A stretch of 17,832 bases of DNA from a virus (IMGVR_UViG_2703718823_000018); one strand, 5' to 3'. Numbered from the stretch's first letter, positions 545-13,402 are shown. The notes: a model not told the origin generated them from the letters alone. Numbers and translations are program-made.

Positions 545-550
545 GCATGT

Positions 551-576
551 AAAAAGGCTCCTGCGATGAGGAGCCT
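551..576 (-). terminator. Intrinsic terminator, minus-strand orientation, downstream of the tRNA array
   Basis: Perfect 8-bp stem (aggctcct 555-562 / aggagcct 569-576); on the minus strand it is followed by TTTTT (complement of 551-555). Confidence 0.5.
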
Positions 577-883
577 GGATATATGCCTAATCTCTGTATA
601 CAGCATGATGCCGGGTGCCTCCCGGTGAGTTCAGTATCAGCACCTGAACCCGCACCAGATAAGGGATATAACCAACCACCTGTCGCTGATATGCCCCTCC
701 GCACAGGGGGATTCACCATGCCAGTTTCTTTTAACAAATACTCAGTCTGACAGGCAACTGTCAACTGACTGAATTGTGAGACATTTAAAATTTTCGGGGC
801 ATGACTGATACCCGGCTAACCACCTGATGCTTCCTTTTTTAGCAACAAACAGGTCCACCAAAGTGAGACAGAAAAAATAAGTG

Positions 884-960
884 TGGCGCGTTGTACTGGA
901 TTCGAACCAGTGACCGATTGCTTAGAAGGCAATTGCTCTGTCCGGCTGAGCTAACAACGC
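884..960 (-). tRNA. tRNA-Arg (anticodon UCU)
   Basis: Reverse complement gcgttgttagctcagccggacagagcaattgccttctaagcaatcggtcactggttcgaatccagtacaacgcgcca folds as a cloverleaf: 7-bp acceptor stem, TTCGAAT T-loop, anticodon loop cTTCTAa, 3' CCA. Confidence 0.85.
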
Positions 961-973
961 ATGATGCTGATAA

Positions 974-1050
974 TGGACCGCCATCGAGGACTCGAACCCC
1001 GCGCAGCCAGCTCCGAAGGCTGGCGCTCTATCCCGATGAGCTAATGGCGG
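974..1050 (-). tRNA. tRNA-Arg (anticodon UCG)
   Basis: Reverse complement ccgccattagctcatcgggatagagcgccagccttcggagctggctgcgcggggttcgagtcctcgatggcggtcca: acceptor ccgccat/atggcgg with a C1:G72 pair, anticodon loop cTTCGGa, TTCGAGT T-loop, CCA end. Confidence 0.75.
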
Positions 1051-1059
1051 TATGTGATA

Positions 1060-1135
1060 TGGTGGCCCTTGCTGGATTTGAACCAGCGACCTGGCGATTA
1101 TGAGTCGCTCGCTCTCACCACTGAGCTAAAGGGCC
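1060..1135 (-). tRNA. tRNA with CAU anticodon, most likely tRNA-Ile2 (ileX/ileZ-like); Met cannot be excluded from the anticodon alone
   Basis: Reverse complement ggccctttagctcagtggtgagagcgagcgactcataatcgccaggtcgctggttcaaatccagcaagggccacca: cloverleaf with anticodon loop cTCATAa. Closely resembles the E. coli ileX sequence as I recall it. The Ile-Arg-Arg trio downstream of Q is typical of lambdoid and Stx phages. Confidence 0.8.
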
Positions 1136-5613: not shown

Positions 5614-5769
5614 TTACTCCTCAGGTTCGTAAGCTGTGAAGACAGTGACCTCCGTCTGGCCGGTTCGGATTCGTACCTCGCAGAGGTCTTTCCTCGTTAC
5701 CAGTGCCGTCACAATGACGGTAATACAGATGACGATCAGGGCGACTAACATCGCCTTTTGCTGCTTCAT
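5614..5769 (-). CDS. hokD: Hok/Gef-family type I toxin (HokD/RelF-like), 51 aa
   Basis: Translation MKQQKAMLVALIVICITVIVTALVTRKDLCEVRIRTGQTEVTVFTAYEPEE: transmembrane helix plus conserved RKDLCEVR and TEV..FTAYE blocks of Hok proteins. AGGAG 8 nt upstream of the ATG. Absent from the ORF track (below 60 aa). Confidence 0.9.
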   Translation of the reverse strand: MKQQKAMLVALIVICITVIVTALVTRKDLCEVRIRTGQTEVTVFTAYEPEE

Positions 5770-5825
5770 AGCCTGCTTCTCCTTGACCTTTCGGTCCGTA
5801 AGAGGCTAATCTCTATGTGTCGCAT
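5766..5825 (-). CDS. mok-like upstream ORF (19 codons) coupled to hok
   Basis: ATG at 5825 (MRHIEISLLRTERSRRSRL); its TGA overlaps the hok ATG (cTATGAag). The uORF start lies inside a hairpin (tctatg-tgtcg-cataga, 5812-5828). Analogous to mok but much shorter than plasmid R1 mok. Confidence 0.4.
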   Translation of the reverse strand: MRHIEISLLRTERSRRSRL

Positions 5826-6027
5826 AGATATGGCCTCAGATTAATGTTAAGCGTCTTGCAGGACGCGTAATGTTAACTGGGGCTTTTCTCTATCTGCCTT
5901 TTGGTGTTCATGCCTGAGACAGATAGCCTCAAGCACCCGCAGTTATTCTACTTAACTAAGATTTCCCCGCAAACCGTTTTTGTCCGGCACAGTAAATATC
6001 CAACTAAACCAATGGCGTTCGCTGTAT

Positions 6028-6207
6028 TTACCGCCAGTATTCAATGCACATGACCGCCATGAACACCCCTAAAAAAAGGGCATTTATATGTCCAAACATT
6101 AATATCAAAACATCAATTTTTTCCATATACCTTGCTGTGAAGATGATGGGCATACATGATGCGAACAACCAGAACGCAACAAACAAAAACTGCAATGCGT
6201 TTTTCAT
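6028..6207 (-). CDS. Small hydrophobic (two-helix) membrane protein, 59 aa, in an AT-rich island
   Basis: ATG at 6207 preceded by a GGGGG Shine-Dalgarno. Translation MKNALQFLFVAFWLFASCMPIIFTARYMEKIDVLILMFGHINALFLGVFMAVMCIEYWR has two hydrophobic segments. Surrounding DNA is visibly more AT-rich than the flanks. Confidence 0.35.
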   Translation of the reverse strand: MKNALQFLFVAFWLFASCMPIIFTARYMEKIDVLILMFGHINALFLGVFMAVMCIEYWR

Positions 6208-6327
6208 TATTCCCCCTACAATCAATGTGCAATAACATTTAAACACACCTCAATTTGGCCGGACATATAAATATCTAAACCAGAAAAAATCACTTACATA
6301 GCGTTACAAACTCTTTAGTCTAAATAT

Positions 6328-6843
6328 TCATCGTAAAACATCCTCCACGCTTATCAGTCCATTTCGTTTCAGGTAATCCATCGCCTTCTCCGGTAATTTG
6401 CAGTCCGGCTGAGCTTTTTTCAGTTGACTGACCAGTCGTTTAACCCACATTGTTAATTCGCTAACCTGATTGCCGGATGCTGGTGGATTGTCGGCTTTAC
6501 CCAGAATGGCAGCGCAGCAGGCCTCTCTGAGCACCCAGTCAACAGCATCCTTCCATGCTCCTGTTTCGACTGGCGGATTCTCACGCTTTACCTGTTCATA
6601 AAAGCGCACGGCTTTAACCAGTCCTTCTGATGTCACCGGGACTGGCGGGCCGATGAATAAGGCCTGAATTTCATAGTTCGGCCTGTCGTTACAATCCTCT
6701 TTTGTCGGTACATATTTCCAGTCACCAGCCCACGGCTTCCCCTGAAAGTCTGTAACGTCTTTTTTCACGTAGCGATATCGCCATGCAACTGGTTTTGCCT
6801 GCCCTGCCGTTTCATGCCCTTCCTGATAATTAATCTTGCTCAT
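6328..6843 (-). CDS. Hypothetical protein (171 aa)
   Basis: ATG at 6843 overlapping the stop of the upstream small ORF (ATGA). Codon composition looks coding; family not recognised. Confidence 0.6.
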   Translation of the reverse strand: MSKINYQEGHETAGQAKPVAWRYRYVKKDVTDFQGKPWAGDWKYVPTKEDCNDRPNYEIQALFIGPPVPVTSEGLVKAVRFYEQVKRENPPVETGAWKDAVDWVLREACCAAILGKADNPPASGNQVSELTMWVKRLVSQLKKAQPDCKLPEKAMDYLKRNGLISVEDVLR

Positions 6844-13344: not shown

Positions 13345-13402
13345 TTTCTGGTGACGTTTGGCGGTATCAGTTTTACTCCGTGACTGCTCTGCCACCCTTT
13401 TT
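13345..13402 (+). ncRNA. dicF: DicF small RNA
   Basis: tttctggtgacgtttggcggtatcagttttactccgtgactgctctgccaccc followed by TTTTT matches my recollection of the 53-nt DicF sequence at all but about one position; located between ydfA and dicB as in Qin. Exact ends are approximate. Confidence 0.8.

Follow-up and report, generated by a model that had tools for sequence, protein, structure and literature searches.

The stretch analysed here (the window) is 17,832 nucleotides (nt) of viral DNA, IMGVR_UViG_2703718823_000018, and represents a Qin-like lambdoid prophage of Escherichia coli, of which it covers the left arm. Our subject is an open reading frame (ORF) of 59 amino acids (aa), here called ORF59, which lies on the minus strand beside a hok/sok toxin locus. 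It begins with an ATG at position 6207, ends with a TAA at 6030-6028 and has the conceptual product MKNALQFLFVAFWLFASCMPIIFTARYMEKIDVLILMFGHINALFLGVFMAVMCIEYWR. The ORF and the features that accompany it are listed below by window coordinates and strand.

6028..6207, minus strand: coding sequence (CDS) of ORF59, 59 aa plus stop, from ORF calling, hydropathy, AlphaFold2 and comparison with a second lineage.
6216-6212, minus strand: Shine-Dalgarno (SD) sequence GGGGG, 4 nt 5' of the ORF59 ATG; GGAGG in other alleles.
6208..6327, minus strand: AT-rich leader or spacer of 120 nt with a guanine-plus-cytosine (GC) content of 0.32, accompanying ORF59 and weakly, significantly alignable to the upstream region of the second lineage.
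5986..6027, minus strand: 3' flank of the cassette; homology to the second lineage reaches ~6006, and hok loci without ORF59 match again from ~5985.
6071..6077, minus strand: run of seven T residues (T7) in ORF59 codons 44-46, the break site of rare frameshifted alleles.
6044..6235, plus strand: antisense ORF of 63 aa with an ATG start, judged spurious.

An earlier reading of the window made from the DNA alone (the sequence-only reading) had described a 59-aa hydrophobic ORF with two helices in 6028-6330, and both hydropathy and AlphaFold2 agree with this for the ORF at 6028..6207. The strong GGGGG SD that it had named is in place, and the AT-rich island is borne out by composition: the GC content of the interval 6028-6330 is 0.353 (ORF59 at 6028-6207, 0.378; spacer at 6208-6327, 0.317), against 0.494 in the upstream gene (6328-6843), 0.507 in the hok/sok locus and 0.487 in the whole window.

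When 1.84 billion representative proteins were searched exhaustively with phmmer, a second lineage (lineage 2; P0037/P0042) emerged; its protein, MRKILMYLCISIWIVISCVPIILTSEYLTEASIMALMFGHANALCIGVFISIIYIECWR, is also 59 aa long and aligns with ORF59 over its full length, without gaps, at 44% identity. An SD-like AGGGA lies 6 nt 5' of its ATG, and a G-run thus stands ahead of the start codon in both lineages. The two CDSs are 60% identical at the nucleotide level, with 0.44 nonsynonymous substitutions per site (dN), a saturated synonymous value (dS) of 2.3 and a dN/dS ratio of ~0.19. Identity is 58%, 72% and 50% at codon positions 1, 2 and 3, respectively, and 14 of the 26 residues identical between the lineages are encoded by different codons. 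The columns of the two-lineage alignment were then shuffled 20,000 times: the observed amino acid identity (25/58) exceeds the permuted value of 16.3±2.6 (P=0.00075), and the observed BLOSUM62 score of 157 (permuted, 41.6±19.2; z ~6) was reached in none of the permutations. Only 0.04% of them left a frame free of stops in both sequences. The remaining five frames, antisense included, have BLOSUM scores of 3-64 and contain stops. The signature by which a real gene is recognized, frame-specific conservation with synonymous divergence across lineages, is present here, and we conclude from this comparison that the ORF59 frame has been under long-term purifying selection at the protein level.

Two other frames were rejected. 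The antisense 63-aa ORF (6044..6235, plus strand) is interrupted by stops in lineage 2 and has low similarity across the lineages. The second candidate was a 72-aa form of ORF59 that begins at an upstream GTG (a 13-codon extension); lineage 2 has a stop 5 codons 5' of its ATG, and the conserved product is therefore the 59-aa form that starts at the ATG.

These results bear on the alternative that ORF59 is an ORF by chance only, within a spacer that is both T-rich and AT-rich, its apparent conservation arising at the DNA level or from youth. Shuffled sequences yield an ORF of such length in 11-14% of cases, a T-rich strand read in frame gives a hydrophobic 'protein', an antisense ORF of similar size is present, polymorphism within lineages is nearly all nonsynonymous, and the RefSeq annotation pipeline PGAP makes no call. 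We nevertheless regard a chance ORF as extremely improbable: conservation is specific to one frame, the length is equal and the start and stop are kept at 40% nucleotide divergence, stop-free frames are as rare among the permutations as stated above, and both lineages have an SD. The sequence-only reading had called ORF59 the only convincing ORF of the interval. It is convincing because of this comparative evidence and not because of its length, which is unremarkable; as to 'only', an antisense ORF of 63 aa exists.

Of 5426 complete E. coli genomes, 1570 contain the 361-nt segment that carries ORF59, in each case with an identity of at least 95%, and ORF59 is also found in inducible phages (for example, PhiR42_1). 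The lineage-2 locus is present in 1045 of the 5426 genomes; these belong to phylogroup B2 and include the type strain ATCC 11775, LF82 and the ST131 strain EC958. Both lineages can reside in one chromosome, as in Ecol_AZ146. Neither was found in K-12 MG1655, from which ORF59 has been lost. No third lineage was recovered by profile search, by tblastn of phage genomes, in one genome per GTDB species or by degenerate motif scans of IMG/VR and metagenomes, and the family appears to be confined to E. coli and Shigella.

Variation was assessed in 270 full-length copies from genomes, IMG/VR and metagenomes, of which 269 are uninterrupted. Disruption of the ORF in relatives with no signature of selection was one of the outcomes that the sequence-only reading had named as counting against it; a single copy of the 270 is disrupted, and the comparison between lineages carries such a signature. 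Major intact alleles are each supported by at least 1000 contigs and truncated alleles by 1-11 each. Most frameshifted alleles in the protein database diverge at the T7 run (6071-6077) and end in ...FFRGVHGGHVH; nearly all come from read-assembled (Logan) data, and the T7-run frameshifts may be sequencing errors rather than slippage variants. The amino acid polymorphisms are mostly I/V, M/I and A/V swaps. At such low divergence, dN/dS within a lineage is uninformative and has no power. A comparison of diversity in ORF59 with that in its flanks was set aside as biased because the loci had been picked by their similarity to ORF59.

Around ORF59, the gene order is that of a lambdoid early region. 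The left part comprises int, a xis-like gene, an exonuclease gene, dicB with DicF and a cI-like gene. The right part runs from cro through ydaT, an O-like gene, P, nin-type genes and a phrog_660 gene to ORF59 and hok/sok, beyond which lie rem, a DUF968 gene, rusA, a Q-like antiterminator gene and transfer RNA (tRNA) genes. ORF59 is co-oriented with the early-right (PR) operon and lies in its nin-type (delayed-early) region, as the sequence-only reading had indicated in placing it in a prophage early region. That reading had also put it next to a hok locus, which both the protein match and the RNA match below confirm. The immediate neighbours are as follows.

6328..6843, minus strand: upstream neighbour, a 171-aa phage protein (phrog_660); its stop is the 5' boundary of the cassette.
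5945..5972, minus strand: probable hok promoter, TTGCGG-16 nt-TAGAAT, located by eye; the putative +1 is at ~5938, where the Rfam model starts.
5767..5938, minus strand: 5' region of the hok messenger RNA (mRNA) and the sok antisense gene (Rfam RF01794, full length, 106.7 bits).
5614..5769, minus strand: hok (HokD-type) toxin CDS, 51 aa (Pfam HOK_GEF, E=1e-22), the downstream neighbour in both ORF59 lineages.

The hok/sok locus of the window is complete and uninterrupted, and 56 nt separate the ORF59 stop from the candidate hok promoter. Rfam also identifies STnc100 at 545-750 (minus strand, 174.6 bits), three tRNA genes at 887-1135 (minus strand) downstream of the Q-like gene, and DicF at 13346-13397 (plus strand, 70.1 bits) in the immunity-left region. 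All of these are commonplace in Qin-like prophages.

Homology between the two lineages extends beyond the CDS, from ~6327 to ~6006 in the window. The leader (6208..6327) aligns weakly with the region upstream of lineage 2, at scores above those of shuffled sequences (global z 2.8-3.4), and the alignment continues for ~22 nt past the ORF59 stop. The lineage-2 ORF belongs to what is left of a decayed prophage, ~2 kb of AT-rich DNA at the Rac attachment site that is flanked by ttcA with an integrase fragment on one side and by uspF on the other. This B2 island also contains ABC-3 permease fragments, and the 59-aa ORF is its sole intact frame. Beginning 55 nt past the lineage-2 stop is a remnant of a hok CDS (L094 6235-6300, plus strand, against window 5701-5636; 79% identity) with an in-frame stop, the promoter, sok and N-terminal codons having been deleted. 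Because this remnant directly follows the lineage-2 ORF, ORF59 and hok were already neighbours before the two lineages diverged, and the ORF59 homologue of B2 strains has outlived hok.

In the region upstream of lineage 2, an extended -10-like element, TGaCATAAT or TGaTATAAT, occurs ~75 nt 5' of the ATG (found by eye; L094 5917-5927, with L097 at the same position). The window sequence aligned to it, TGATTTTTT, is without such an element. The chromosomal lineage-2 copy may be transcribed from a promoter of its own and the prophage copy from the early operon. Just past the stop of the upstream gene, at 6309-6321 on the minus strand, is a palindrome, CTTTAGACTAAAG. Lineage 2 has a counterpart, CTTCAGTCTGAAG (L094 ~5876-5888), in which T>C and A>G changes preserve the symmetry; this might be chance, or the palindrome might bind a protein or form a weak hairpin.

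The sequence-only reading had proposed a comparison with related prophages at this site, and this comparison was informative. In E. coli O22:H8 strain 154 (L103), the phrog_660 gene and the hok locus are both as in the window, but an 84-nt insert replaces 5986..6327; in an O157:H7 prophage (L104), the upstream gene is different and an 84-nt cassette likewise occupies the 5986..6327 slot. The 84-nt cassette (L103 2678-2761, minus strand; same position in L104) is unannotated, has a GC content of 0.54 and encodes a 27-aa hydrophobic single-helix peptide, MTWPEAFITVGIAMAVALVVYSICRWG; the ATG of this ORF shares bases with the stop of the gene before it (ATGA). Its two copies differ by two synonymous changes and one nonsynonymous change. 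The site of ORF59 in relatives has therefore undergone replacement by a different cassette, not simple insertion between adjacent genes. At many other hok loci, similarity to the window stops at ~5958-5985. In K-12-like Qin and PhiR42_1 (L004, L002), relB-relE, ydfV, flxA and ydfW together with an ISNCY/insertion sequence (IS) fragment interrupt the locus precisely at the start codon of hok (breakpoint at window ~5768-5783). The hokD CDS is there joined to the relBE operon, and the orphan hok promoter, sok and 5' untranslated region remain beside ORF59, 3.3 kb from the hok CDS.

Because relatives carry a different insert in the same slot, ORF59 and its leader are an exchangeable accessory cassette of ~340 bp and of foreign composition, located where the last early gene ends and before the hok/sok promoter. 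The suggestion that this is horizontally acquired cargo fits both the distinct base composition and the 84-nt insert of the relatives. Morons are defined by a GC content that differs from that of their neighbours, by presence or absence among relatives and by their own promoter and terminator (PMC3594210), with expression from the repressed prophage. Judged by sequence features, the ORF59 cassette would qualify on the first two counts, with a GC content of 0.36 against 0.49-0.51 in the flanks and with its variable presence; no consensus promoter or terminator of its own was found in the window.

The long-standing adjacency to hok invites the explanation that ORF59 is part of the hok module: its product would temper Hok, or its translation or transcription would insulate the hok promoter from early-operon read-through. 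The adjacency predates the lineage split, at which dS is saturated, and the same slot in other hok-bearing prophages holds the 27-aa hydrophobic ORF. Against this, hok/sok works alone on plasmids, and similarity to the window ends at the 5' end of the mRNA in plasmid hok loci and in many chromosomal ones; moreover, the hok CDS lies 3.3 kb from ORF59 in K-12-like Qin, ORF59 persists in B2 strains although hok is dead, and no terminator lies between ORF59 and hok. We consider this explanation very unlikely. A broader version would make the small ORFs 5' of prophage hok promoters (ORF59 and the 27-aa peptide) third components of hok/sok, membrane partners that set the threshold for killing by Hok or couple killing to early-operon expression. 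It would account for the survival of the ORF59-hok adjacency since the lineage split, and we think it improbable.

ORF59 has two hydrophobic segments (residues ~4-25 and 33-55) separated by a charged loop, R26..D32, and a grand average of hydropathy (GRAVY) of 1.2. AlphaFold2, run with the family alignment, predicts helices at 2-25 and 30-58 with a mean predicted local distance difference test score of 72.8. A Foldseek search of the PDB returned generic helical hairpins only (E>3) and no informative fold match. Basic residues mark the N-terminus (K2 in the window allele; in lineage 2, R2/K3), and the loop between the helices is neutral to acidic; because of this charge distribution, the product is probably a helical hairpin in the inner membrane with both termini in the cytoplasm (N-in/C-in). 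Positions conserved with lineage 2 are W13, S17-C18-x-P20-I21-I22-x-T24, Y27, L36-M-F-G-H-x-N-A-L44, G47-V-F49 and I55-E-x-W-R59, and S17-C18-x-P20 is the best conserved block of both lineages. Within the helices, conservation falls on polar or small residues (S17, C18, P20, T24, G39, H40/Y40, N42 and G47). Such residues are typical of specific helix packing and not of detergent-like toxins. Their pattern suggests that the ORF59 product makes a specific helix-helix contact, either with another copy of itself or with a larger protein of the membrane, rather than damaging membranes non-specifically.

The conserved Cys18 raises the alternative that the product is a lipoprotein, in which residues 1-17 would form a signal peptide cut by signal peptidase II at the invariant S17|C18 to leave a 42-residue lipidated peptide with a C-terminal helix at 33-55. 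Both lineages fit the PROSITE PS00013 lipobox rule (K or R among the first 7 residues, then an uncharged stretch and a Cys at 15-35, here Cys18 after LFAS or IVIS), as do 81 of 83 family members, and the motif coincides with the best conserved block. The rule is unspecific, however, since 16 of 50 background ORFs with hydrophobic N-termini from the retrieved loci pass it as well. In addition, the hydrophobic run goes on for 7 residues past the Cys (MPIIFTA or VPIILTS), which is unusual in mature lipoproteins, the window lineage has Phe at position -3, and AlphaFold2 gives one continuous helix from 2 to 25. A lipoprotein thus seems unlikely to us.

Small size, two helices and a GRAVY of 1.2 are also what would be expected of a membrane-damaging toxin, either a two-helix protein like GhoT or OrtT or an unconventional type I toxin, that depolarizes the inner membrane and complements or backs up hok. 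ORF59 lies beside a type I toxin locus in two lineages and, like many small toxins, is AT-rich and unannotated. Other observations point away from this role. Neither lineage matches HOK_GEF, GhoT or any other Pfam toxin family at E<=10. An antisense RNA, the hallmark of a type I system, was not detected by Rfam at the locus of either lineage: at both gathering and permissive thresholds, the hok/sok element is the only match near ORF59, with nothing in 5940-6400 or at the lineage-2 locus. The single antisense promoter-like site of lineage 2 is absent from the window, and the idea of an antisense promoter was dropped. Folding of the leader RNA and of the 3' flank is unremarkable, with z-scores of +0.1 to -1.3 relative to shuffles (leaders, +0.11 and -0.99) and no sequestered SD. 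Lastly, the B2 remnant has lost hok and retains an intact, partnerless ORF59 homologue with a promoter-like extended -10, a situation that fits a harmless or useful protein better. We give the toxin explanation little credence.

Several characterized systems offer comparisons. ORF59 resembles Hok/Gef proteins in being small, hydrophobic, prophage-borne and adjacent to hok in two lineages; it differs in having two helices rather than one and in lacking a HOK_GEF match, a sok-like antisense RNA and a fold-back leader. GhoT/OrtT (57 aa) are comparable in size and in the predicted two-helix hairpin, but there is no sequence relationship (Pfam scan to E=10), no GhoS-like partner and a different genomic context. 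Class II holins and pinholins are likewise small, phage-encoded and have two transmembrane helices. ORF59, in contrast, matches no holin family, lacks a charged C-terminal tail and maps to the nin-type region, well away from the lysis cassette, where a separate holin is encoded. DUF4212/TIGR03647, the small subunit of sodium:solute symporters, is a two-helix membrane protein of ~60-80 aa to which lineage 2 has weak full-length hidden Markov model (HMM) matches (E 0.03-0.07; 14 bits, versus curated cut-offs of 26-30 bits). The window ORF59 has no match to it and no symporter gene is nearby; the lineage-2 match is most likely compositional.

A precedent is offered by HK97 gp15 and other small inner-membrane proteins that are encoded by morons and act in superinfection exclusion (PMC3594210). 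Like gp15, ORF59 would be a small membrane protein of a lambdoid prophage, encoded in a GC-distinct cassette that is present, absent or replaced among relatives (PMC3594210), and it also has a homologue in the chromosome outside an intact prophage (lineage 2). ORF59 differs in having no sequence similarity to gp15/YebO or to any PHROG, in lying in the early-right region and not in the tail operon, and in having no consensus promoter or terminator of its own in the window.

In RefSeq, PGAP leaves the ORF59 interval without annotation on either strand in every genome inspected, and lineage 2 is also unannotated. GenBank submitters have named the product 'hypothetical' or 'membrane protein' (UniRef A0A0J2DWW3). 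Three phage records (PV340562.1, ON470612.1 and ON470619.1) annotate the opposite strand instead ('hypothetical protein', 'hornerin'); given the stops in lineage 2, this is probably a mis-annotation. ORF59 has no Pfam match at E<=10, the Hok/Gef, GhoT/OrtT and holin families included, and no significant match in NCBIfam. The roles that the sequence-only reading had raised (toxin, lysis modulator, superinfection-exclusion factor) therefore find no support in any defence, holin or toxin family, and silencing by H-NS, which it had also raised, would be conjecture.

We favour the explanation that ORF59 is a real, unannotated inner-membrane protein gene on a moron-type cassette with an accessory modulator or exclusion role, and assign this statement as a whole a probability of roughly 60%. 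Its first part is the strongest: ORF59 is very probably a real membrane-protein gene on an accessory cassette. The role is more tentative. By analogy with HK97 gp15, the product could be an accessory inner-membrane modulator or an exclusion-type factor, which we put forward as a possibility rather than an expectation; it is preferred because of the conserved polar and small intrahelical residues and the persistence of the gene without a partner in the decayed remnant.

Several observations weigh against this explanation. In the window, neither a sigma-70 consensus promoter on the ORF59 strand nor a terminator-like site on either side of ORF59 (towards the upstream gene or towards hok) was found; an independent transcription unit of the moron type would have both. 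The length of ORF59 is not significant, with an equal or longer ORF in 11-14% of dinucleotide shuffles of the region (P 0.10-0.14). There are only two lineages, and the case for conservation hangs on a single deep comparison. Within lineages, the ratio of synonymous to nonsynonymous polymorphisms is 1:10 (window lineage) and 0:4 (lineage 2), or 1:14 in total; an excess of synonymous changes is not seen, and the total is compatible with neutrality (P=0.18, 270 copies). A McDonald-Kreitman-type contrast of polymorphism with divergence gives P=0.057 and could indicate relaxed constraint. The proposed modulator or exclusion role comes from analogy and the residue pattern alone: no PADLOC defence HMM matches either lineage at E<=1, PHROGs contains no significant match to ORF59, and a literature search by sequence, UniProt identifier and topic returned nothing on the ORF59 protein.

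Under the favoured explanation, ORF59 would probably be transcribed with the delayed-early genes on prophage induction, because it points the same way as the PR operon and has no terminator ahead of it; in lysogens, it would perhaps also be weakly transcribed from its own AT-rich leader. The protein would probably insert in the inner membrane as an N-in/C-in hairpin and might, through specific helix packing, serve as a modulator or exclude phage.

The ORF59 family is an unnamed one of two lineages, new but of a familiar kind. Prophages are known to carry small membrane-protein morons, and in this respect ORF59 is no surprise. It illustrates how a small membrane protein can be conserved and still go unannotated: its two lineages are carried by 1570 and 1045 of the 5426 genomes, respectively, yet neither is found in RefSeq/PGAP annotation or in any protein family database, and some phage records annotate what is apparently the wrong strand. 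K-12, which has neither lineage, offers a clean null background. Finally, the old linkage of ORF59 and hok/sok raises a testable question, namely, what travels with prophage toxin loci.

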